Shown here: positions 6,021 through 44,223 of the stretch, one piece after another
Layout: each line of letters starts with the position of its first letter
Position numbering within the stretch: position 1 is the stretch's first letter
Virus record (IMG/VR): IMGVR_UViG_3300028887_000077
Coordinates: 86,028-150,027 of that record
Reading direction: 5' to 3' (one strand)
DNA from: a virus
Taxonomy: Duplodnaviria > Caudoviricetes
Length of the DNA: 64,000 nucleotides
Notes under the pieces: model-generated
Database searches by the model: none
What the model saw: the letters and a program-made list of their open reading frames with translations, nothing else
Told to the model about the DNA's origin: nothing
Program-made: the position numbers and the translations under genes

Positions 6021-6767
6021 TCAATTGCCTCCTTTCTTGATTCTCTTTCCGGAATGATCGTACACCGCGACGACGTGCCCGTTGTTTTTGCGCCAGCAGA
6101 TTCCGCACTTGTCGCACGTCACTCCGGTCTCGCTTCCGTCTTTGGCAATGGCGGGACAGTGCGTGACCTTTTCGAGCTCGGGGTTCGTGTGGTCGTCGTA
6201 AACAAACCGATTAAGCCCATGCAGATCGTATCCGGCCGTGTTCCCGTTCCATTCGGAAATATTCACGACGAGATTTTCGGGAAACTTCCCGTTCTCTTTG
6301 AGATATTTCTCGATGAACGAGAACCTTTTCGTGTAGAAGTAGAAGTGGACGTTCGGAAGGTTTTTTGCGAGACCGACCATATGCTCGAGGTACGAGTAAG
6401 ACTCGATCTCTCCCGAACTGTGGTATCGCAGAAGTTTGACGTCATGTTTCGTCAATTCTTCTTTGATCTGCCGGAAAGCGCCGTCGAGATCGTTGCGAAC
6501 GATCAGCGTGTTATTTCCCCACGCGGGAATGTTGACGTTGTGGTGACACTGTGCAGACCGGATGGCATAGCAGTAGCGCTCGCATCCATCGCAACAGCCG
6601 GTGCAGGTGCCAACGACGTTCGTGAGGTCCCCCTTGTCCTTCGTGGAGATAGGTTTGTCTCCTGGGAGCAGGTTAAAGTTGTAGATCTTTCCGATCTTCC
6701 TGTTCCCCTTCGAGAGCTTGATGCGCATCCCATTGGTGTAATGAAGGTCATACGGTGTTTTTGACAT
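6021..6767 (-). CDS. GP88-like (radical-SAM-like, Cys-rich) phage protein
   Basis: KLSKGNRKIG, CTGCCDGCERYCYA, RYHSSGE, YFYTK, CP...CDKCGICW...H motifs of the gene product 88 family. Confidence 0.8.
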   Translation of the reverse strand: MSKTPYDLHYTNGMRIKLSKGNRKIGKIYNFNLLPGDKPISTKDKGDLTNVVGTCTGCCDGCERYCYAIRSAQCHHNVNIPAWGNNTLIVRNDLDGAFRQIKEELTKHDVKLLRYHSSGEIESYSYLEHMVGLAKNLPNVHFYFYTKRFSFIEKYLKENGKFPENLVVNISEWNGNTAGYDLHGLNRFVYDDHTNPELEKVTHCPAIAKDGSETGVTCDKCGICWRKNNGHVVAVYDHSGKRIKKGGN

Positions 6768-6784
6768 TGATGACTTCTCCTTTC

Positions 6785-6982
6785 TTATTTCAAAATGCCG
6801 TAGACATCATCAACGTACCAGCCCGCGAACGGGTTGTATATCGCAGAGCATTTAACCCCGCGATACATCGCCACATACGCGTTCTTGCCGACGTCGGGCT
6901 TTTCGAGGATGGTGGCCTCGGCGAGACCACCATTCAGCGAATGGATATGTGCTGTTACCGTCTGATTGATTACTTGTTTCAT
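6785..6982 (-). CDS. hypothetical protein
   Basis: SD plus ATGA coupling; CSAIYNPF...YVDDVYG. Confidence 0.75.
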   Translation of the reverse strand: MKQVINQTVTAHIHSLNGGLAEATILEKPDVGKNAYVAMYRGVKCSAIYNPFAGWYVDDVYGILK

Positions 6983-7284
6983 TTGTTTACCTCCTTTCTG
7001 ATAATGCAGATGTCGTAGTTCGCATCCCAGTTGTCCTGATGGTCGCGGAACATCTTCGTTGTGGATATGCCATGTTGTTCAAGATTTTGAAAAACGTCGT
7101 CGGGCGTCCTCCAGATGTCGCCCTCATCCATGACAAATCTGTTCTTTTTGCCCTTTTCGATTCTGGAATCCGCCCACTTGATGGCCCTTTCTGCGTCATC
7201 AAATACGCACAAATCGGTAATGGCGTCGATCTCGTCGCAAAGACGTGGGCAGTTGCTTTCGAAACATACATACACGACTTCCAT
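6979..7284 (-). CDS. hypothetical protein (paralog of 7299-7640)
   Basis: AAAGGAGG SD; shares VYVC.../A..W/QDN.D motifs with its neighbour. Confidence 0.75.
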   Translation of the reverse strand: MEVVYVCFESNCPRLCDEIDAITDLCVFDDAERAIKWADSRIEKGKKNRFVMDEGDIWRTPDDVFQNLEQHGISTTKMFRDHQDNWDANYDICIIRKEVNK

Positions 7285-29664: not shown

Positions 29665-30456
29665 TTATTTTATATTAGTTGTGCCGGCTATATTTAACGA
29701 CTTTTCGGGATTTTCCTTATAGTACTTCTGAATATAATACTTTTCTCGCTCCAAGATATTTTCGTCCTTAGGTACGATTTCCAAAACTTCAAACTGATAA
29801 TCAGTAATCGAGCTGATCGGGAATCTTTCGGTCTTCAGATGCTGCCCCCATCTAAAAATAGGCGCATATACTGTTTGACCGATGTAAAATTCTCCTGTCG
29901 ACTTTTTCGAAATCTTATAGATATACCCGGCGCACTCGTTAGAAAACATGTCTCTGGTAACGAAAAACTCGGTGTCCTGATCAGGGCTTAGCTTTTTTGT
30001 TTCTCTCTGTCTGTATTTTTCTTTGCACGCATAGCAACAAAACTTTTTAGTTCTATATTCTTGGATGTTAAAAAAGTCGTACTTTACTTCGTAGTTGGCG
30101 AACTCTATATATTTTCGCAGATACGTCGTAACTTGGGACCCGCAGTTATCACAGACAAATGAAATTTTTTGAAAGTACCGCTCTGTGTCATAGCAGTGTT
30201 CACCAATTATAACACAGTACAAATCGCCAGCTTTGAGATTTTTGCTGAATCGAAAAGAAATATTTTCGCCGTATTCGTCACGGATAATTGACTTGAACTG
30301 CTCTCGGTCATCACAAACAAGGCAGTCCATAGTCAGTTCCTTGTTGCACATTTTACTTATGCTGTTAAACCCGAAAACTTCTACCCCCGATTGTAGTGCT
30401 TTCTCCTGCTCTTCCGCAGAAGACACCTCGTAGATTCGGTACAAAACTTCAATCAT
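29665..30456 (-). CDS. protein with C-terminal GIY-YIG nuclease domain and central Zn-binding motif
   Basis: GYIYKI...EFYIGQT...RW..H...FEVLE...ERE.YYI...N; CDNCG...FCCYAC. Confidence 0.8.
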   Translation of the reverse strand: MIEVLYRIYEVSSAEEQEKALQSGVEVFGFNSISKMCNKELTMDCLVCDDREQFKSIIRDEYGENISFRFSKNLKAGDLYCVIIGEHCYDTERYFQKISFVCDNCGSQVTTYLRKYIEFANYEVKYDFFNIQEYRTKKFCCYACKEKYRQRETKKLSPDQDTEFFVTRDMFSNECAGYIYKISKKSTGEFYIGQTVYAPIFRWGQHLKTERFPISSITDYQFEVLEIVPKDENILEREKYYIQKYYKENPEKSLNIAGTTNIK

Positions 30457-35267: not shown

Positions 35268-36535
35268 TTATGTTTTCCGGGGCCTATTTTTTATTGCCAA
35301 TTCTGCACGAATATCTTCGACCATTTTTGCGAAGTCTTCGTCAGATATAATCTCCATTACCGGCGACTCGTATGGCAGATAATGTCCTTCGGTTGGTTCA
35401 TCCTTCTTCTCTGGTGGCTCCAAAGAAACCGGAGATAGAACATAATATCTACCAAGGAATTCAACAGCATTCGGATCGTCTGCCGTTGACTCCACGGGTG
35501 CGATCGGCATCTTTTGAGGAACACACGAAAGTATTTCCTCGTCTAAAAGCACCCACGCAAAGTCCCAGTTAAACTTCGTGTATGATTGTGAAAGCGCATA
35601 TATGTACGTGAGTCCGTCAAGAGTGTTGAGTTTAAGGTCCGCGTATTGTGCACGTATTTTTTCCGTCATAGAGTCGATCGCAGCGAACCTGAAGTCTTTA
35701 TACTCATCAGGATCAGCCCCGTCGAACACGCGAGAAACCGTTTGTAGATTTTTGTTCGAACTGAATGTTCGGTATATATCTCTCATCTTATGCAGCACAT
35801 CCGGATCGATTTTAAACGAATCAAGATCGTGGTGTGGAAGCATAGATATATTATGCTTATGGTAGTTGATGTCAAAATCGACAGATTCAAATTCTTTGCA
35901 TATTAGATTCATCGTACAATCGCTATTAATTACCGGTGAGAACCGCCTGTATCTTCTGATAAAAGTCCGTTCGAGTTCTGTTTTCTGCTCTTTCATTAAG
36001 AGCTTTTTAATTGGCATGCGGAACATGCACTTTGATGTCTCATTATACTTAGACTCATAACGCTTATACTTGGCATTAAGTTCTTGGTACAAGTACCGGA
36101 AGAAATATGGCTTCTTCGCTAGAACTAATGAGTTATGATAATATTTCGCTTGTCGTTCTGCGTCTGTATCGTCAGGAAGAATTTTTTGGATCTTCAACCA
36201 CTCGTCTTTTGGCGGGCCCTTTGCGTCGACACCCTTGATTCGGTCGATCTCTTGCCCGTTAATTTCTCTCAGGAGCTTTTTACGCAACAGTAATTCGTTG
36301 TCCTGCGGGGAGTCCTGTGCGAAGAGAGGGCGCATCGCCTCTATAATTGTCGAATAGTTAGAATATGTGCCGACCTTCGTACCAAACCCTCTGATGTCCG
36401 TTTCGACAAAGTTTCTGTGGCAAATTCGCTGAGATGGGACCGCTTCTTTGTCATATGAAATCGGATTCGTTACGTCCTTCATCGAGCCCTTTAATAAAAC
36501 CTCATTGTCAGAGCTCATAACTAAATCGCCATCAA
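35268..36535 (-). CDS. exon 2 of YonO-like single-subunit (RdRP-fold) RNA polymerase
   Basis: Begins TT-GAT-GGC-GAT (F|DGD); includes GTYSN, Q.IDRIKG and KPYFFRY.Y motifs. Confidence 0.9.
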
Positions 36536-36852
36536 CCAAAACACCCTCGGTTTCCCGATATTTATTAGGGGAGTAGACTATCTCTTCGGCTTACACCCTT
36601 TTAACAAATGTAAGTCGCTCGGCACTTTGGAAATACGAGTTTCACGCATTCCCTACTCTACTCGCTTCTTTTGCGTTGTGTTTCTCAACGCATATGCTTT
36701 CGATAGTCGTTACACCTTCTCAATTAAGAGCTTGGCACGGTATTATCATTTTACAAATTTCACCGTTAGCCGAACCGTTGGTTCGACACCCTGCTTTTGC
36801 AGGTTCACCGAGTTTACTACCGGTCGTCGCCGACCGGCGGACCCTGATCACT
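36536..36852 (-). ncRNA. group I self-splicing intron, 317 nt, no ORF
   Basis: 5' exon ends in U (GACU) pairing with GGUC (P1); P2 hairpin 36819-36838; P3 CUCGG/CCGAG; P7 GACUAUC (36702-36708)/GAUAGUC (36576-36582); P9 with GAAA loop; terminal G; removal restores the frame and DFDGD. Confidence 0.93.
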
Positions 36853-38527
36853 AGTCACTGTCTGAATGTCTTAATGTACTCAGATCATAAATCGAGTAAA
36901 TAATGCCGCTGTGTATGTGGGAGTACCACTTTCGTGCTTCGTCGCTTGAATAGAGCGTACAGTGATTCACCTCGTGCTTATCCAGCAGCGGCGAACGACA
37001 AAGCACAATCTCGTCTCCCGGACTTTTCCTCCGTTGCCAGAACTCCGAATAAATATGCTCACCGGGGATTTCTCCGTCCACCGGAAGCCGTAACGCAGCC
37101 CGGCACTGTGCGATCGGGTCAGAGATCATGAACGAGTAATTCCCTCTCACCCATATCTTACCGATTTTCGTTCGGTTAATAGTCTCTACAATATTTCGAT
37201 ATATTTTTTTCTGGACATATGCGTCCTTTAAGAAGTCTGGGTCTTTTACAACCGCCTTCATAGCGAGGTTTTGTGCTCGCACAAACACATCGTTGTATGT
37301 GACCAGGCGGTCTGAGGAAAACCCTCCGAGAGAATAAAGCAACGCATACACGTCATCGCCAGAACATATCTTATTGACCCAGTCGATTGTTGGGGCAACA
37401 AGTCGCTTAATATCATCCTTATTAATATTAAGCACTTGGATGATCTGGTAGTTTGCGAGAACATACTCGTCGTCTATGGCCCGATTATATCTAGAAACAC
37501 CCCAGCCGATGTTGTACTTGGTGGTGTATCTCAAATAGTCCTCATAAGACGAATAGTACTTGTACTGCTTAAACTGACTTTCTGAAAGCAGAACGTCGAT
37601 CTCGTCCACGTTGTGTGGGTTTCCCCATCGGTCGTATATGATTGATATGCCGTGCTCTTTGGCGTATGCACGAAAATCAAACGGTACCAGATTACCTTTT
37701 GTCCATATTGTTCGGACGACAAAGCTTGACGGGACATATTTAAGAGACATGTTTTCAGACCATCTCTTGGCCATATCCGGCGAAATAAGCCCCTGCCCGT
37801 CAAAGCTGTTCATCTTAATATCTACGACGCGCTCTTCTACAAGCTTTTTCGTCTTCGTTGTTCCGTCTGCAAGCACAACATCTTTGTTGACGATCCAGTC
37901 GAGCTTCTGATCCTTTAGCGTAGTAAATGCATCCGGGATAACACAAACCCTTGGTGTATCAACCCACATAACAGAGGATGTCGCCAGCGAAAAATACGCA
38001 GAAAGCTTCGCTATGTTAATTTCCTTAACGCGGTCCGTAAGCCCACACATCAATCGCTTTTGAAGCTCTTGATAGATCTCTGCGTTACAGAAAATAACGC
38101 AATTTCTTCGTATATTCCCGGCCGAGGCGCTAAATCTAACATACCGAACACCGTTTAAGTAAAACCCGTTCTTTGCCAGTCTTCTGTAGTCGGATTTTTT
38201 AAACACTTCAACGATCGCAAAGTCTTTTACATAGAGCGTCTTTGTCAAAAAGCTCCAATAAACCTTTGCGTTTTCGTTGTCCCCATCTCGTTTTGCTCTT
38301 CGTAAATTTTGCCTGATCTTTTGAACAAGAGCGAAGATTTCTTTCGGTGATCGATTGTCGCCTCTGATTTTTCGGGCTTGTGCAAATGCGATGTTGTCGC
38401 CGCACGAAACAATGCTGTTTGTTGGCGCCGCTTTCTGCAGCCCGAAACCCTGAATGTTTAAGTTGTTCTGACAGATGAAAGTAGAAGACAGTTTAACAAT
38501 CTGGTATAAAACCTGTTCTTGTATCAC
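36853..38527 (-). CDS. exon 1 of YonO-like single-subunit (RdRP-fold) RNA polymerase; spliced product ~980 aa
   Basis: KLSAYFSL, FDGQGLISP, R....KG, SQFK, CRSP and ...DSD|FDGD motifs of the cellular-RdRP/SPbeta YonO family. Confidence 0.9.
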
Positions 38528-38542
38528 CTTATAGTCTTCTCC

Positions 38543-39112
38543 TTAGTTGCTGTGAAAAAGTATTTCCTCTCCCATTGGAGACAAAAGAAATTTAGTGATC
38601 GTAGCAACATCCGTCTCCAACACGGACAAATTAAATTCGTTGTTAATAGTAAAATCTGCTTTATAATCGTTCATATCGACCTCAGACGCATGCTTCTTTT
38701 GTTCCTCTGTTAATCCGTTGTCGAAATTCGGCCGGACCACACGACAAACCGTGTATGTAAAATCCTTAAATCCGTTAGCCTCATTTTTATATCGACAATC
38801 TGGTATTAACATATAGTCTGCGTCAGAACCAAGAGCGATCTCACGACAGATATTTACCCAGCACATCGGATTGTTTTTTCGATAAGCCGTTCCTACATTT
38901 TGAAGAATGGTTCTTCCAACAGGTCCCTTATCGCCTACAATCCATCCGTAAGATGTGCTGCATAGCATTTTTAGTGGATCTGCAAAATGGTAAATAATAA
39001 CGCTTTTCCCGGCCTCTTCGAGAAACTTTTTCATAAACGAAGCGGTCGTGTCTTTTCCATGGCGAGCAGAGCCAGATAATAAAATGATTTTAGTATTTTT
39101 CATATGTGTCAA
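38543..39112 (-). CDS. deoxynucleoside monophosphate kinase
   Basis: P-loop GSARHGKDT, FADPLK, R..LQ..GT, IPDCRY.NE, H.SE. Confidence 0.85.
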   Translation of the reverse strand: MTHMKNTKIILLSGSARHGKDTTASFMKKFLEEAGKSVIIYHFADPLKMLCSTSYGWIVGDKGPVGRTILQNVGTAYRKNNPMCWVNICREIALGSDADYMLIPDCRYKNEANGFKDFTYTVCRVVRPNFDNGLTEEQKKHASEVDMNDYKADFTINNEFNLSVLETDVATITKFLLSPMGEEILFHSN

Positions 39113-39716
39113 CCCGCATTAGCTCTTTTTCCACAAGTGCGAACTCTAAAATTCTAATGATTTCTTTCCAGGTGTCAACAATATATAAATTATCCAAAAC
39201 GGCGGTCTGTTTGTTCCACTGTCTATCTATTCCGCGTTTATATAAAATCTTACAGTTCGCGTTCGTAGTTGCAAGTGCGTCAAACCGGTCGTCGATTTGG
39301 ATTCCGTTTGTCATATTAATATGTGATTTGTCGTAACAATTTACTTCTTTTGATAAAGCACATGGCAGGAAGGTTGCTTTTGAGAAATGCTTTTTTAAGA
39401 ACGCTTCCTTCCTTTTTAAATTAAGCGGTATGCCCTTCGAGACAAAAACAAAGTTGAAATGCCGTTTGTGATCGTGATAAAAACGCTTAAAGTCCGGATC
39501 AATCTGAACAATATCCCAAAACCTCTCCGATGCGAAGATTTCGTTTACGTTATCGAAATTGGCCCCGGAATAGATCGACCGGTATCCCCAGTCGGTAACG
39601 TCCTTTACGGTTTTATTTGTTCCGTATTTTTCGTTCATGATTTGAACGACGGCTTCGGACGAATGAAGCACTGTGTCGTCGACGTCTAAAAATAATGTAA
39701 TTTTTTCTTTGCCCAT
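39090..39716 (-). CDS. HAD-family 5'(3')-deoxyribonucleotidase-like protein
   Basis: LFLDVDDTV motif I; DKS...IQIDDR motif IV. Confidence 0.8.
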   Translation of the reverse strand: MGKEKITLFLDVDDTVLHSSEAVVQIMNEKYGTNKTVKDVTDWGYRSIYSGANFDNVNEIFASERFWDIVQIDPDFKRFYHDHKRHFNFVFVSKGIPLNLKRKEAFLKKHFSKATFLPCALSKEVNCYDKSHINMTNGIQIDDRFDALATTNANCKILYKRGIDRQWNKQTAVLDNLYIVDTWKEIIRILEFALVEKELMRVDTYEKY

Positions 39717-39785
39717 AATGTGTTAACGCATCAATATATGCCCTCCTTTATTTATAAAGGCCTTTCGGCCTCTGCTTTCGTGTAT

Positions 39786-39814
39786 ATTATATCATATACA
39801 TTGTAGGTTGTCAA
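39786..39814 (-). promoter_or_regulatory. promoter P1 (leftward; nucleotidase-kinase-RNAP operon)
   Basis: Exact TTGACA-17-TATAAT with TG extension. Confidence 0.9.
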
Positions 39815-39863
39815 GTGTTTTTTGGTAATTTTTCATGTTTTTTAAAAATTTTTTCATTTTCTA

Positions 39864-39892
39864 TTGACAAATCGAATTTGACGTGCTAAAAT
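39864..39892 (+). promoter_or_regulatory. promoter P2 (rightward, into the non-coding core)
   Basis: TTGACA-17-TAAAAT with TGn extended -10. Confidence 0.8.
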
Positions 39893-39960
39893 ATTTGGGT
39901 GGCGGGAGGGAATAGATGAATAAGACGAATAATAATATAATTATAATTAGTTTAATTACT

Positions 39961-40023
39961 ATTATACCTTATCAGGTATAAAAATATAATATATATATTG
40001 AATTATACCTTATTGGGTATAAT
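39961..40023. repeat. two related palindromes in an AT-rich core
   Basis: TATACCT-tatc-AGGTATA and ATTATACC-ttattg-GGTATAAT, 41 bp apart, sharing ATTATACCTTAT. Confidence 0.85.
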
Positions 40024-40076
40024 ATTTATATTACTTTTAAACTCCTTTTGTTTATCTTTTCCCGCCCACCACCCAT

Positions 40077-40105
40077 ATTATAACTCGGGGAAAACGATTT
40101 GTCAA
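40077..40105 (-). promoter_or_regulatory. promoter P3 (leftward, into the non-coding core)
   Basis: Exact TTGACA-17-TATAAT; shares TTGACAAATCG with P2. Confidence 0.85.
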
Positions 40106-40144
40106 GGGGTTTTGTAGAAAAAAATAAAAAATCTCGAAAAGGTC

Positions 40145-40173
40145 TTGACAAACCATAATCGATGATGTATAAT
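40145..40173 (+). promoter_or_regulatory. promoter P4 (rightward operon)
   Basis: Exact TTGACA-17-TATAAT. Confidence 0.9.
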
Positions 40174-40212
40174 AAAGACAACAAACCGGATGGTATCCGG
40201 GAAGGAGGATAT

Positions 40213-40434
40213 ATGCCAGATTTTAAATTCGGGAGTCGATTCGAGAAAGAAACGCGCGAGGAGCTGCTTGCGTACTTGAGAATGGTAAAGAACAAAAAAT
40301 CGTTCGGAGAAGTTGCTGCGTGGATTGTTGGATTTTGGCAATCCGCAACAGCAGAAGAAAACGAAATGTTCATCAGTGCGCTCGGAGACCGATCTTTCTG
40401 GGAGGAAATCTTAAAGGAGAATGACGATGCGTAA
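40213..40434 (+). CDS. hypothetical protein
   Basis: AAGGAGG SD. Confidence 0.75.
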   Translation: MPDFKFGSRFEKETREELLAYLRMVKNKKSFGEVAAWIVGFWQSATAEENEMFISALGDRSFWEEILKENDDA

Positions 40435-40972
40435 CAAAGAGATTGAACAATTAAAAGAGAGGTTTTATTCAGTTAAGAGCCCCAACGACCTGAAGGCCCT
40501 TGCAAACGAATTCTTCCTTTTTATTGAAGACACGCTCATGCGCGAGGAAATGATTTGTCGCGCATACGAAGAGTTCGAGGCAGAACAAAAAGAGATGCAT
40601 AAGTGCGTGCCGGTGTTCGCAAGGGAAATCGAATTCCTTAAGAGGATTGACGACAAAACCGACCGGCGCCTTATGTACGGACTGCTCTTTGCTCGCAAGT
40701 ATAACTATCACAAATCGGGATGGATCAAGCTCGACATGAACGAGCTTCGGTATCTTACGAGAATGCCGAAGCTGAAGTCTGAGGATTTGTCCGCGCTTAT
40801 TAAATACAGAATTGAGATGCGTGTCATCGGAAAGAGAGATTCGACCGTTACCTTTATGGATCCTGACATTCTGATCTACGGGTACACAGAAGAAACCTAT
40901 GACGATGATTCCTTCGGATTTCTGACGAAGGCGGATTGTCCGTACAAATTTGAGGATTTATGCTGCCAATAA
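40421..40972 (+). CDS. hypothetical protein, possible winged-helix DNA-binding protein
   Basis: AAGGAG SD; PV...EI...I.....RL.Y.LL..RK....GWI. Confidence 0.75.
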   Translation: MTMRNKEIEQLKERFYSVKSPNDLKALANEFFLFIEDTLMREEMICRAYEEFEAEQKEMHKCVPVFAREIEFLKRIDDKTDRRLMYGLLFARKYNYHKSGWIKLDMNELRYLTRMPKLKSEDLSALIKYRIEMRVIGKRDSTVTFMDPDILIYGYTEETYDDDSFGFLTKADCPYKFEDLCCQ

Positions 40973-41730
40973 ACAAGTCCGATGTCTGTAGGCGTATGCT
41001 GGACACCGGTAAATACCAGTTGTCTTCCAGCAAGATCGTTGAGGACGTATGGCTGATTGCGTGGCTGAAGTCAAAGGGTATCGGGTATGATGATGCGTTT
41101 GAAAAGTGGAAGCGTATTTACATCACCCGACACCCGGATGACGAAACTGCGAAGTCTGTGTTTGACAAGCTATGGATGAACTCGCGCCGAACACGGTTTA
41201 TCAATAAGTATAAGCCAATCGTTTTCTATCAACAAGAGATTGACGATATTGTTGCCGCCAACATTCCGGTGTGGCAAAAAGAAGCTATTGCGTTGATGTA
41301 TGCAGTAGCAAAAACGGTTGGATCATCTGAGTTAGATGTTTTGCCTATGTCTGACATTGTTCGTATGACATCTCTTGTATGTTATCATCATGGATATGAA
41401 ATTGACAGCGTATTAGAAAATGCACAAAAATTTGGTTTCGTGCGTTTTAAGACAACAAAGCTGTGGGATAACGCATCTGGGGAATACGATACATTTCTTC
41501 GTTATGCATTTCCTCATATACAAGTATCCGGAGACATATATAAAGAAATAAAGTCTGTATTAGATGTTCCAGAAAATATTTTCGAAGCGTTGTCTGTGTC
41601 TGTATGTGTAGACTGTGGTAGGTTGTTTAAACAAAAAATAATTGGCAGAAGGCAAAAAGAGCCAAGATGCCCTGAATGTTATGTACAATATGTACAAATA
41701 AAAGAGAAAAAAAGATTATCTCATTGTTAA
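40960..41730 (+). CDS. hypothetical protein with C-terminal Zn ribbon
   Basis: CVDCG...RCPEC; central segment resembles 40421-40972. Confidence 0.75.
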   Translation: MLPINKSDVCRRMLDTGKYQLSSSKIVEDVWLIAWLKSKGIGYDDAFEKWKRIYITRHPDDETAKSVFDKLWMNSRRTRFINKYKPIVFYQQEIDDIVAANIPVWQKEAIALMYAVAKTVGSSELDVLPMSDIVRMTSLVCYHHGYEIDSVLENAQKFGFVRFKTTKLWDNASGEYDTFLRYAFPHIQVSGDIYKEIKSVLDVPENIFEALSVSVCVDCGRLFKQKIIGRRQKEPRCPECYVQYVQIKEKKRLSHC

Positions 41731-41820: not shown

Positions 41821-41896
41821 GCTTCTTTAGCTCAGTTGGCAGAGCAACGGTCTGTTAAACCGTGGGTCGTAGGTCCGAGCCCTACAGGAAGCGCCA
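41821..41896 (+). tRNA. trnN: tRNA-Asn(GTT)
   Basis: Cloverleaf: GCTTCTT/AGGAAGC acceptor, ACGGT-ctGTTaa-ACCGT anticodon arm, G73, encoded CCA; T-loop TCCGAGC. Confidence 0.92.
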
Positions 41897-42114
41897 GATA
41901 GAACCAGACAAGCCTCCTAACAATGCTCAAATCGTCTGGTCTTTCACCAATTACCCCAAAGGCCAAGGGGTCGGTTGGGTTTGCCCTCACTCGGTGGTAC
42001 CGATCAGCTGTCAAACCTCTGTACACGGGTCGCTCCCGGTGGTATATGTTCCCAAAGCAGCAGAAAGCCATCGTATTTGTAAAAAGGAATTATAGGATAG
42101 AAAAGGAGAGTTAT

Positions 42115-43444: not shown

Positions 43445-43479
43445 TTTTATTATATTTATTTTTTTTGGGGGAGATAAAT

Positions 43480-44223
43480 ATGGAAAATAATTCTGGAATA
43501 TATGGTATTATTAATTTAAAAAATAACAAGATTTATATTGGTTTGTCAACTCGTTTAAATGTGAGAAAGAAAAGTCACTTTAATGCATTAAAGAGAGGAA
43601 ACCATATAAACAAATATCTGCAAAGCGCGTTTAATAAATATGGGGAAGACGCGTTTTCTTTTATTGTTTTAGAATATTTAGAATCTGACAAAGAAAAATT
43701 AAAAGAAAGAGAAATTTATTGGATACACTATTATTTATCTAACAATCGTCTTTTTGGTTATAATATGACTTGTGGAGGAGATGGGGTTAGAGAACTAGAT
43801 GAAGATGCCAAAAACCGAATATCTATTGGAAGAACAAGACGCCGCGTTGTACAATTAGACAAAAATGGAAAATATATTGCCACATATCGGAACGCAAAAG
43901 AGGCTTCTGTTCATAATGGTATTCCGTTTGATAAAAATATATTTTTGTGTTGTCAGCATAGATATGGTTGTCAAACATGTTATGGATATATATGGATGTT
44001 TGAAGAAGATTATCTTAAAACGGGATGTGATGCGTCGAAATATGTACGCGGTTGTTTTAAGAAGCCTATAGAACAATATGATCTTAATGGTAATTTTATT
44101 GCGTCATACGAAAGTGCTCGAGACGCCGAAAGAAAAACCGGCATAGGATATAAAATGATTTCTCGTGTTTGTAATGGTGAAAGACCATATACGCATGGGT
44201 TTGTTTTTAAATTTTTAAACTAA
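43480..44223 (+). CDS. free-standing GIY-YIG homing endonuclease with two NUMOD1-like repeats
   Basis: SGIYGI.N..N.KIYIG.S..L..R...H...ERE.YWI...GYN.T.GG; two V/I.Q.D.NG.(Y/F)IA.Y.(N/S)A..A repeats; visibly AT-rich. Confidence 0.9.
   Translation: MENNSGIYGIINLKNNKIYIGLSTRLNVRKKSHFNALKRGNHINKYLQSAFNKYGEDAFSFIVLEYLESDKEKLKEREIYWIHYYLSNNRLFGYNMTCGGDGVRELDEDAKNRISIGRTRRRVVQLDKNGKYIATYRNAKEASVHNGIPFDKNIFLCCQHRYGCQTCYGYIWMFEEDYLKTGCDASKYVRGCFKKPIEQYDLNGNFIASYESARDAERKTGIGYKMISRVCNGERPYTHGFVFKFLN

Follow-up and report, generated by a model that had tools for sequence, protein, structure and literature searches.

G-rich transcript-primed origins are known from ColE1 (RNA II) and from mitochondria (CSB II). 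In herpesviruses, oriLyt is connected with G-quadruplexes and R-loops (PMC12599619; PMC11350156). The T4 origins oriF and oriG comprise ~100 bp with a promoter and an A+T-rich unwinding element (DUE), which suffices for origin function. The transcript forms a persistent R-loop, the RNA of which primes in one direction only, and heterologous unwinding elements can take the place of the DUE (PMC3016281). In the ceduoviruses (c2, bIL67 and 923) the origin is non-coding and is located in the gap between divergent gene blocks, bounded on its two sides by PE1 and PE2, the first early promoters, which are in tandem. The PE1 transcript is also non-coding and is thought to start replication, and when placed on a plasmid the ori works in the absence of phage proteins (PMC7150918).

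The element considered here is found at a strand switch in a 64,000-nucleotide stretch of DNA (the window) from a bovine-gut phage of 150 kb, which encodes its own YonO-like RNA polymerase. At positions 39786–40173 of the window there are four consensus sigma-A/sigma-70 promoters in the order P1 (leftward), P2 (rightward), P3 (leftward) and P4 (rightward; Table 1). They thus form the two back-to-back pairs of the preliminary description, every listed feature of which was found in its place: the outer promoters point toward the two gene arms, while P2 and P3 converge with a separation of 184 bp, given earlier as ~185 bp. The four are the best among 11 promoter-like sites in 38500–41500, where a site is counted at 9/12 or better and shuffles of the same region give a mean of 8.6 (sd 3.1). 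The P1 arm carries an NT5C-like gene, a dNMP kinase gene and the split YonO-like RNA polymerase genes. No terminator-like site was found in the core between P2 and P3, which means that the transcripts would continue into the arms.

P2 and P3 are of the same class as the other early promoters of this genome, which is rich in near-identical promoters, and their A/T-rich upstream element is also present at ~17 other early-type promoters. All of the latter are followed by a Shine–Dalgarno sequence (SD) and a start codon, and only P2 and P3 have no conserved gene behind them.

Table 1. Features of the four-promoter element in window coordinates; the last two rows refer to the relative G006.
Feature	Position	Strand	Remarks
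P1	39814→39786	−	TTGACA-17-TATAAT, 12/12, with TG; outer promoter, minus arm
Downstream of P1		−	hairpin, then SD, then start of ORF 39090–39716
A/T-rich upstream region	39815–39863		common to back-to-back P1 and P2; same upstream-element pattern at other early-type promoters
P2	39864→39892	+	TTGACA-17-TAAAAT, 11/12, with TG; inner promoter, rightward into core
G-run A, GGGTGGCGGGAGGG	39897–39910	+	begins 4 nt past the P2 −10
Tract after G-run A, AATAGATGAATAAGA	39911–39925	+	holds motif positions 19–20 G, A (part of AGAT)
21-codon ORF, MNKTNNNIIIISLITIIPYQV	39916–39981	+	behind SD GGAGG (39905–39909); judged non-functional
Palindrome 1	39962–39981		TTATACC-N6-GGTATAA, perfect
Spacer between palindromes	39982–40002		core centre; A/T-only except one G
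Palindrome 2	40003–40022		TTATACC-N6-GGTATAA, perfect
Tract after G-run B, AAAAGATAAACAAAA	40046–40060	−	from sequence and arm alignment
G-run B, GGGTGGTGGGCGGG	40061–40074	−	begins 2 nt past the P3 −10
P3	40105→40077	−	12/12; inner promoter, leftward into core
P4	40145→40173	+	12/12; outer promoter, plus arm
Downstream of P4		+	hairpin, SD, ATG at 40213; 73-aa ORF 40213–40434 and genes beyond
P2 counterpart in G006	L207 9970–9998		
P3 counterpart in G006	L207 10182–10154		

Both P2 and P3 are followed by the same G-run motif, GGGTGGNGGGNGGG, at distances from the −10 that agree with the 2–4 nt proposed earlier, and the transcription start of P2 probably falls within G-run A. A scan of the 150,027-bp genome on both strands gives only two sites for the pattern GGG.GG.GGG.GGG, both of them in the element. 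The core (39911–40060, 150 bp) has a GC content of 0.16 (core values 0.13–0.16 overall) and is the second most AT-rich window of the genome at 100 as well as at 150 bp. As described before, it contains two palindromes 41 bp apart; both are perfect and flank an almost A/T-only spacer, as candidate repeated initiator-binding sites beside an AT-rich tract. There are no further perfect copies in the genome, and at up to two mismatches 10 matches are found, compared to a mean of 4.3 in 20 shuffles. Aligned to each other, the two arms of the element have a mean column identity of 80%. The anatomy given in the preliminary description is confirmed and is beyond chance. The similar purine tracts that it pointed out are indeed present but not distinctive, the purine fractions of 0.73 and 0.76 being matched by the other early leaders of the genome (0.56–0.82), and the tract was rejected as a signature.

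The promoter-plus-G-run pattern has 9 viral (IMG/VR), 40 metagenome and 2 genome contig matches, which after pooling correspond to 42 distinct elements, the two of the window included, while a control motif in mirror order has none. Setting motif position 4 free in IMG/VR returned the same 9 loci, and the T at this position is thus invariant (9/9). The positions between the G tracts vary freely among the 42 elements, and of the 18 AT-rich elements (group A), 17 have a G at position 19 and 15 an A at position 20. Each of the five other phage records examined (28–157 kb) contains the exact motif once, with a second match at one mismatch in one of them; a control pattern gave one match in all five together. 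Judged from these comparisons, with members ranging from marine T5-like phages to gut Firmicute-type phages, promoter plus G-run is a specific conserved motif, the recurrence of which is not due to chance. That the T is invariant and that G and A are conserved argues for sequence-specific recognition, beyond a mere propensity to form G-quadruplexes.

In T5, SPbeta and c2 the motif is absent, with only two-mismatch matches at control level. When 1.4 kb and 76 nt of the element were compared by blastn with 50,697 phage records, the outcome was either no match or noise at E ≥ 0.2, and likewise one marine member had no match above noise. A cultured relative was not found among the searched phage records, nor were close relatives of the two flanking proteins in IMG/VR. 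The bare 14-mer occurs in at least 118 IMG/VR stretches, of which 117 were read, nearly all from GC-rich contigs with no upstream −10; the known members are absent among the matches listed, and the outcome was uninformative. The idea that the phage's own polymerase uses the G-run as its promoter was rejected, as there are 1–2 copies per genome and the G-run sits behind a host-type promoter.

Most members of the family are single-sided and lead directly into the next promoter and gene; L008, L024 and L030 show the form with a G-run promoter, an AT tract and a second tandem promoter. In the marine T5-like branch, perfect DnaA-box clusters adjoin the element in L007, L013, L022, L035 and L041, and one perfect and one near-perfect DnaA box are located by it in L026 and L052. 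Clustered DnaA boxes of the kind that define iteron/DnaA-box origins, found in several marine members, were not found around the G-runs of the window: at up to one mismatch to the consensus there is no DnaA box from 300 bp upstream to 400 bp downstream of either of them. Direct repeats of at least 20 nt follow the G-run in 17 of the 20 marine loci tested, compared to 11–23 nt in control windows. These repeats are mostly 40–47 bp apart; the palindromes of the window are spaced by 41 bp.

The preliminary description had suggested that related phages be searched for the same layout and named unconserved G-run symmetry as a refutation; this refutation fails, since mirrored G-run promoters were found in two other lineages. 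In the distant relative G006 the four promoters are all present, next to the same split genes for the phage RNA polymerase, whose products are 54% and 45% identical to those of this phage. The mirrored core is also present in a third lineage, the G001 group (six variants), with P2-, P3- and P4-like promoters. In this group there is hardly any variation in the promoters and G-runs, whereas the AT core differs by indels of 10–30 nt with its composition kept, and such variation means that the core there holds no fixed operator. Since the flanks differ around the conserved element, the upstream one being unrelated in L059 and the downstream one diverged in L017, the module behaves as a cassette. 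In G001 it is located 16–20 kb within a co-directional gene arm, off the skew minimum, and its reverse inner promoter reads antisense into the co-directional upstream gene. The mirror scans covered gaps of 100–161 nt and gave no match at gaps of 100–130 nt. What the sequence shows is the four promoters, the motif with its conservation and its single occurrence in each genome, the absence of a conserved gene and the AT-richness, and the element is best explained as a cis-acting non-coding module.

Like T4 oriF (uvsY) and oriG (34), the element has promoters, here P2 and P3, that point into an adjacent A+T-rich element within ~100–200 bp, here the core. In the T4 account the DUE sequence is unspecific, which fits the indel-rich AT cores of the G001 group, and origin use is tied to the early/middle transcription programme, with later reliance on recombination proteins. 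However, the T4 promoters are MotA-dependent middle promoters while those of the element are full host-consensus promoters, and the T4 units are single rather than head-to-head; the account describes no conserved G-run at the transcript start. The two have no sequence similarity, and the R-loops demonstrated in T4 are here proposed.

The likeness to the ceduoviruses concerns the layout, since P2 with P4 and P3 with P1 constitute two tandem pairs of the PE1–PE2 type at the strand switch. Among the ceduovirus ori types described, the sequence between the promoters differs and the layout is kept, as in the present family of elements. A c2-type ori would have no RBS or ORF behind its first promoter; of the two inner promoters of the element, P2 has an SD and the unconserved 21-codon ORF, and P3 has neither. 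The c2 origin (NC_001706) differs in being one unit of ~360 bp that is not mirrored, with a core that is not extremely AT-rich and a PE1 transcript that does not start with a G-run, the motif being absent at up to two mismatches. Its activity has been demonstrated on plasmids (PMC7150918), whereas origin activity of the element is proposed. Blastn against the phage collection gave no match to the c2, bIL67 or 923 ori types. Given this and the absence of the motif from c2, the element is an analogue and not a member of the c2-type ori.

With ColE1, CSB II and oriLyt, the common feature is that G-runs clustered in the non-template strand or the nascent RNA are tied to a persistent RNA–DNA hybrid at an origin. 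A G-quadruplex could in principle be formed by the four short G tracts of the element, which have loops of 1–2 nt. The G-run of those other systems is located well downstream of the promoter, in single units, whereas in the element it probably spans the transcription start, and the T that never varies, together with the conserved G and A of positions 19–20, points beyond G-quadruplex potential.

By analogy with these systems, the element could quite possibly be an origin that combines a promoter with an AT-rich unwinding element, similar to T4 oriF/oriG or the c2 ori and doubled head-to-head, and this is the reading that we tentatively prefer. Host RNA polymerase would then fire early in infection from the facing consensus promoters P2 and P3, with each transcript starting inside the four short G tracts and continuing into the ~150-bp core of 16% GC. 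The G-rich RNA start would favour a persistent RNA–DNA hybrid just behind the polymerase, and so would the non-template strand, which would be displaced, rich in G and perhaps folded into a G-quadruplex. The AT-rich core would act as the unwinding element, and the RNA of the hybrid could serve as a primer, or as a DNA opener, for leading-strand synthesis. Two such units head-to-head would send forks both ways, and the lineage-specific palindromes, at their spacing of 41 bp, might be sites for a phage-specific DNA-binding protein. We infer the firing of P2 and P3, the formation of an R-loop or G-quadruplex and the start of replication at this place. A broader proposal is a portable replication "ignition" module that needs no phage initiator, in which the ~14-base GGGTGGNGGGNGGG start of the transcript from a consensus host promoter would impose an R-loop or G-quadruplex where an unwinding element or a block of iterons begins. 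It would be common to marine T5-like siphoviruses and gut Firmicute-type phages with YonO-like polymerases, and doubled head-to-head here and in two other lineages, where host RNA polymerase would lay one primer per strand for bidirectional replication. We regard this generalization as doubtful.

The origin reading was already put forward in the preliminary description, and it fits the known promoter plus AT-rich DUE origins, the single occurrence per genome, the indel-variable AT core of the G001 group and the DnaA-box clusters and iteron-like repeats that adjoin the marine members. The GC-skew inflection suggested there as a check turned out to be no evidence. The skew minimum at the element coincides with the strand switch, and the inflection tracks transcription in related genomes too; because skew follows gene direction and the G001 element is located off the minimum, it lends no support. 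According to the twin-domain model, convergent transcription should overwind the DNA between the polymerases, so that transcription from P2 and P3 would disfavour melting of the core.

The genome also contains a second origin-like region at 83.8–84.5 kb of the genome, with its most AT-rich window (GC 0.04–0.10), iteron-like repeats and ~300 nt without C on one strand, and this region is arguably more classical as an origin than the element. The replication genes are ~58 kb from the element. The gene set, namely a DnaB-like helicase, a primase, a Sak4-like annealase and exonucleases, would be compatible with early origin firing followed by recombination-dependent replication as in T4; no family-A DNA polymerase was found in this genome. 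An RNase HI gene was found in none of the five records, and the host could supply this activity. The separate AT-rich region, the remote replication genes, the lack of a DnaA box near the G-runs of the window, the lack of RNase HI and the absence of the motif from T5, SPbeta and c2 speak against an origin at the element. That the T does not vary and the G and A are kept speaks against one that works by G-quadruplex alone. A packaging site was considered as well: no terminase gene is found within ~5 kb of the element in the clustered related loci, and that of the window is 5.5 kb away. An attP site was rejected, an integrase being located 0.8 kb from the element in the G001 group and L062 only.

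As the main rival reading, the element could be a regulatory hub that has no origin function, with P2 and P4, and P3 and P1, as tandem promoters for the two arms. The distal promoters would collide, the G-run leaders would act through pausing or backtracking, 5'-end protection or factor binding, and a phage protein on the two palindromes would gate read-through, thereby setting the timing or balance of the arms, notably of the RNA-polymerase operon. The G-run promoter is upstream of and aimed at the YonO-like polymerase genes in this phage, G006, the G005 group and L024 (the latter two may be one lineage), which also fits a role in gene expression and thus speaks against an origin. The order in the window is P3, P1 and then the polymerase gene (36851–38527), and in the G005 group and L024 the G-run promoter is ~680 nt upstream. 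The second tandem promoter past the AT tract in L008, L024 and L030, the lack of a terminator-like site in the core and the signs of sequence-specific recognition at the T and at positions 19–20 are likewise in line with a hub. There is also precedent in convergent-promoter switches, namely coliphage 186 pR/pL and pCF10 prgQ/prgX, where strong promoters face each other over 60–230 bp with overlapping, interfering transcripts. Those promoters, however, express genes or defined regulatory RNAs, whereas the overlap in the element is non-coding, AT-rich and accompanied by an outward promoter pair, and in G001 the reverse inner promoter serves no gene and yet is kept in all six variants. The polymerase gene is ~46 kb away in G001 and missing in the complete marine record G004, the G001 core varies by indels, and one occurrence per genome would be odd for a general leader device, the ~17 other early promoters having no such motif. 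On balance we find a hub rather unlikely.

Alternatively, P2 and P3 could produce a pair of trans-acting non-coding RNAs of ~180 nt, fully complementary to each other, that act as hairpins and dsRNA, or through their G-rich 5' ends as a decoy or seed against a host or phage target. Both strands fold to long hairpins (−63.2 and −62.3 kcal/mol, z ca −7.3 compared to shuffles), and the 5' motif is kept across very different phages, as expected of a seed region. However, the folds follow simply from the imperfect inverted repeat, neither arm ends in a terminator, the family is mostly single-sided and runs into the next promoter and gene, and the G001 interior is indel-rich and of low complexity. 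Rfam gave a best score of 31.7 bits for 38500–41500, compared to a gathering score of 73, only a tRNA and an abiF motif, both away from the element, for the whole window at the gathering threshold, and no match at E ≤ 0.1 for eight related loci. An RNA pair is improbable. A small-protein gene or type I toxin–antitoxin system, with a 21-aa hydrophobic peptide from P2 (39916–39981) and an antisense RNA from P3, was also considered. Type I systems typically have overlapping transcripts that converge, the GGAGG is 6 nt ahead of the ATG, and 21 codons are open despite the very AT-rich DNA. The earlier statement that there is no credible gene here thus holds because this ORF is not conserved and not because an ORF is absent. 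A start codon is missing from the first 13 nt past the G-run in 24 of the 42 elements, and the ORFs of the remaining 18, which range from 1 to 79 codons, seem unrelated when inspected by eye. G006 lacks an ATG at the corresponding place, and in the P3 arm an SD-like AAGGAG is not accompanied by a start codon. The region thus appears to be non-coding. As the hydrophobic stretch is just ~10 residues and the small ORF is absent or unrelated-looking in relatives, this candidate was rejected as most improbable. Finally, the promoters could be redundant, having arisen by duplication and inversion or cassette shuffling, with the G-rich start tuning promoter strength only. Promoter cassettes do move, since the P1 core alone (39783–39822) matches several otherwise unrelated contigs from other gut runs, and the genome has many near-identical promoters. 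The four-promoter layout nevertheless persists at ~50% protein identity of the neighbouring genes, the motif with its invariant T is kept from marine T5-like to gut Firmicute-type phages with no control matches, and it occurs once per genome, which makes a lack of dedicated function quite improbable.

Single-sided promoter plus DUE origins and PE1–non-coding–PE2 origins are known, and the earlier view that the architecture has no description stands in part, namely for the G-run and the head-to-head doubling, which were not found in the literature. Searches with six spellings of the G-run returned only unrelated work on human and mouse genes. The origins of nearly all uncultured large phages are unknown. 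Should the element prove to be an origin, the origins of many viral contigs, unrelated hosts included, could be read directly from sequence by a 14-nt motif located behind a consensus promoter. Bacterial viruses would then also have a counterpart of the origins that G-rich transcripts prime in ColE1, mitochondria and herpesviruses, and the element would offer a natural way for host RNA polymerase to prime in both directions. As a regulatory device, it would still be a widespread and undescribed motif in the initially transcribed region, and the invariant T with the G and A at positions 19–20 would imply that a conserved partner exists, be it RNA polymerase itself or some nucleic-acid structure.

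None of the 17 sequencing runs listed as holding the sequence is on record as RNA. Contigs of ~94–96% identity carry the element in other gut runs, and one of them (72.9 kb) spans 38500–41500 with 168 differences and no indel in 39860–40105.

Between the two gene arms of the window, one running leftward from about 39.7 kb and the other rightward from about 40.2 kb to the record end and round to about 88 kb of the genome, there are four promoters in the order P1<-, P2->, <-P3, P4->, matching TTGACA-17-TATAAT at 12, 11, 12 and 12 of 12 positions, respectively. The inner promoters, P2 and P3, share the sequence TTGACAAATCG and point towards one another with 184 bp from -10 to -10. Behind each comes a G-run, GGGTGG(C/T)GGG(A/C)GGG, which begins 4 nt past the -10 of P2 and 2 nt past that of P3 and is directly followed by the tract A-A-W-A-G-A-T. 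In the centre, where the GC content is 0.13-0.16, two perfect TTATACC-N6-GGTATAA palindromes lie 41 bp from each other, on either side of a spacer that is A/T throughout save one G. The anatomy given in the preliminary description is thereby borne out. In the whole genome, the G-run pattern occurs at the P2 and P3 sites only, and the perfect palindrome at these two places only. Other promoters of the same class (14 matching at 12/12 and three at 11/12) have an A/T-rich upstream element common to all, and behind each of these, at a distance of about 15-60 nt, come an SD and a start codon. P2 and P3 are clearly promoters of this class, yet they read into non-coding DNA.

Coordinates and gene order of features in the window and in related or compared records
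Feature	Coordinates	Strand or direction	Remark
Window	G000:C1:86028-150027		final 64 kb of the 150,027-bp virus record
Left arm, first genes		leftward	NT5C-like, then dNMP kinase
Left arm, next: YonO/RdRP-like single-subunit RNA polymerase, split	window 35268-38527	leftward (-)	558-aa and 423-aa ORFs; gap 36540-36850
Right arm, in order		rightward	three small/unknown ORFs, tRNA-Asn, SbcD-like exonuclease, GIY-YIG endonuclease, large terminase
P1 promoter core	window 39783-39822
tRNA-Asn	window 41821-41896
abiF RNA motif (Rfam RF03085)	window 41904-41940	+	49.9 bits, gathering score 37; directly after tRNA-Asn, overlaps start of SbcD-like exonuclease ORF
Homing-endonuclease gene	window 43465-44223	+	GIY-YIG and NUMOD1 Pfam matches; between SbcD-like exonuclease and terminase region
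Second homing-endonuclease gene	window 29665-30456	-	weak homing-endonuclease PHROG hits only
Early promoters with -35 hexamer in inverted-repeat loop (examples)	genome 36,500; 38,702; 63,423		outside the window
Second candidate origin	genome 83,800-84,450 (L185:3800-4450)		about 83.8-84.5 kb, just outside the window
Split polymerase of G006	L207 5490-8686		gap 6714-7015
G7 run in phage c2 ori	L180 1265-1285	-

The G-run promoter is a family and not an accident. Scanning for a consensus promoter with GGGTGGNGGGNGGG starting 2-4 nt behind it gave 9 loci in IMG/VR, 40 in metagenome contigs and 2 in 596 Gb of prokaryote genomes; together with the window's two this makes 53 occurrences. Downstream sequence of 60 nt or more is available for 52 of them, and the number of distinct elements is 42. 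A control with the mirrored G-tract order had no match in IMG/VR. Exactly the same 9 IMG/VR loci were returned when the T of the query was replaced by N, which means that this T is invariant; at motif positions 7 and 11, by contrast, three or four bases are seen. Each of five further phage records (28-157 kb) contains the exact motif once, one of them with an extra hit at one mismatch, and the control pattern gave one hit altogether in these records. No Rfam family matched the element or the related loci, and literature searches by motif spelling returned unrelated papers only. The element is real and conserved and, as a motif or as a mirrored layout, undescribed as far as searched.

The 42 distinct elements form two groups, of 18 and 24. 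In the smaller one, which includes both arms of the window's element, the DNA behind the motif is 77-98% A+T, position 19 is G in 17/18 and position 20 is A in 15/18, giving AGAT or AGAC. The larger one has GGGATA at positions 12-17, GC-richer DNA behind it, and consists mostly of marine metagenome contigs. Its only complete marine record, the 103-kb G004, carries a family-A DNA polymerase, SbcC, ribonucleotide reductase and siphovirus tail genes and looks T5-like. Direct repeats of at least 20 nt are found behind the element in 17 of the 20 marine loci tested, mostly 40-47 bp apart, compared to 11-23 nt in control windows. Clusters of two or three perfect DnaA boxes occur at L007, L013, L022, L035 and L041, while at L026 and at L052 a single perfect box is accompanied by a near-perfect one. 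Across the marine T5-like loci L006-L060 (for example L013, L022, L035 and L041), the G-run promoter is followed by the conserved GGGATA and often by the block AAAAGGGGACAAATGTCGCGCC, by paired direct repeats of 20-42 nt about 42 bp apart and by the DnaA-box clusters, and at 16 loci a polynucleotide-kinase-like gene is convergent on the element.

The mirrored layout of the window's element is shared by two other lineages. In G006, a distant relative (94 kb, 68% complete), all four promoters are present (P1 11/12, P2 11/12, P3 12/12, P4 11/12), with a G-run behind each inner one and an AT-rich core between, and the element adjoins, as in the window, two small genes and the same split polymerase, whose halves have 54% and 45% protein identity. 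The right-hand G-run is looser (four G tracts, 1-2-nt loops) and the TATACC palindromes are absent from the G006 element. In a third lineage, the G001 group (six variants, from records of at most 157 kb), P2-, P3- and P4-like promoters are present and two G-runs enclose a core of ~60-95 bp. Its promoters and G-runs are invariant or changed at loop positions only, and its core shows 10-30-nt indels between variants. The upstream flank is unrelated in one variant (L059) and the downstream flank divergent in another (L017). The reverse inner promoter of the G001 group points into the 3' end of a co-directional gene, and it therefore serves no gene. The loci L008, L024 and L030 are single-sided: AT-rich DNA of ~80-130 bp separates the G-run promoter from a second promoter, behind which comes a gene. 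This assignment covers the other AT-rich members with enough sequence; L044, L045, L055 and L061 end at a contig edge before 250 nt, and at L046 and L062 a second consensus promoter was not seen.

The preliminary description saw no credible gene between the inner promoters. P2 does have an SD and a 21-codon ORF, but this ORF is not conserved in the family. We also considered the element as a gene, and discarded this option: in 24 of the 42 distinct elements, the 13 nt next to the G-run contain no start codon, the ORFs of the remaining 18 have 1 to 79 codons and appear unrelated by eye, and G006 lacks an ATG at the position matching the start of the P2 ORF. Long hairpins are predicted on both strands (z about -7.3). 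Strong folds are expected of an imperfect inverted repeat of whatever kind, and the many indels inside the element in the G001 group make a structured RNA less likely.

We now turn to function, for which a transcription-primed bidirectional origin had been proposed. Our best reading, offered tentatively, is an early, host-polymerase-dependent replication origin, based on the likeness to T4 oriF/oriG, to the Ceduovirus origin and to the G-rich, transcript-linked hybrids at origins, such as that at mitochondrial CSB II. The G-run would promote an RNA-DNA hybrid, the AT core would unwind, and the head-to-head doubling would lay one primer per strand. The single-sided unit has its counterpart in the minimal origin of T4 oriF/oriG, a promoter that reads into an A+T-rich tract of ~100 bp without required sequence, for which a persistent R-loop of the transcript in the unwinding element is reported (PMC3016281). 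In position and tandem-promoter frame, the window's element matches the origin of the Lactococcus Ceduovirus, described as non-coding DNA that is bounded by the first two early promoters and separates divergent gene blocks, with a non-coding PE1 transcript and the ability to replicate plasmids without phage proteins (PMC7150918). G-rich, transcript-linked hybrids are reviewed for the ColE1 and T4 origins (PMC12599619) and likewise reported for herpesvirus oriLyt (PMC12599619, PMC11350156).

Several points weigh against an origin. The GC-skew inflection put forward as a check is of no help, as the minimum at the element cannot be told apart from an effect of the strand switch, and the G001 element lies well inside one gene arm, at a distance from the skew minimum. 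Convergent transcription is expected to overwind the DNA of the core, and the helicase-primase module is ~58 kb from the element. A regulatory role, only somewhat less probable, is a serious rival, since the G-run promoter is directed at phage polymerase genes in four phages, among which the G005 group and L024 may represent a single lineage, as their polymerase proteins fall into one cluster. The invariance of the T and the conservation of G and A at positions 19-20 suggest a recognition more specific than quadruplex-forming tendency. The once-per-genome count, the cassette behaviour and the AT-rich composition fit the origin reading, as do the iteron-like repeats and DnaA boxes seen in the marine branch. 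No other interpretation is better than that of an origin, though it is unproven, and the element would belong with the transcription-dependent phage origins or early-promoter modules.

Another non-coding region, of 650 bp, between a terminator and an early promoter at genome 83.8-84.5 kb, looks more classical and is a candidate for a rival or second origin. It includes the genome's most AT-rich window (GC 0.04 across 100 bp), ~300 nt without C on the plus strand, iteron-like repeats of the TGTGAG...ATATATGTGAG type, and two GGGTATA copies on the plus strand with one reversed (TATACCC); behind these comes a C/A-rich mirror segment. The half-site GGTATA is common to this region and the palindromes of the window.

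The 'terminal repeat' of the G000 record is only 47 nt, which suggests a circular or permuted assembly. The large terminase has less than 33% identity to that of any cultured phage, and a bovine gut metagenome is the best holder of the sequence among public sequencing runs. The two polymerase ORFs correspond to successive portions of phrog_8308, and the ~310 nt between them are GC-rich and look structured; no Rfam match at gathering score was found. The split and the gap recur in G006, and the G005 polymerase is a single ORF of 855-864 aa; the split may reflect an intron or a genuine two-subunit form.

At several early promoters, a GC-rich inverted repeat carries the -35 hexamer in its loop (e.g. 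ggcccc-TTGACA...-ggggcc), suggesting overlapping terminator-promoter units. Several contigs from four other gut runs match the P1 promoter core but are otherwise unrelated, with both flanks diverging, and promoter cassettes thus seem to be shared among gut phages. Finally, in the experimentally defined ori of phage c2, a G7 run with ATAAAA behind it (GAGGGGGGGATAAAA) lies within the region of the non-coding PE1 transcript, ~70 nt upstream of the EP2 -35 box. Its faint resemblance to the GGGATA of the marine group may be a coincidence.
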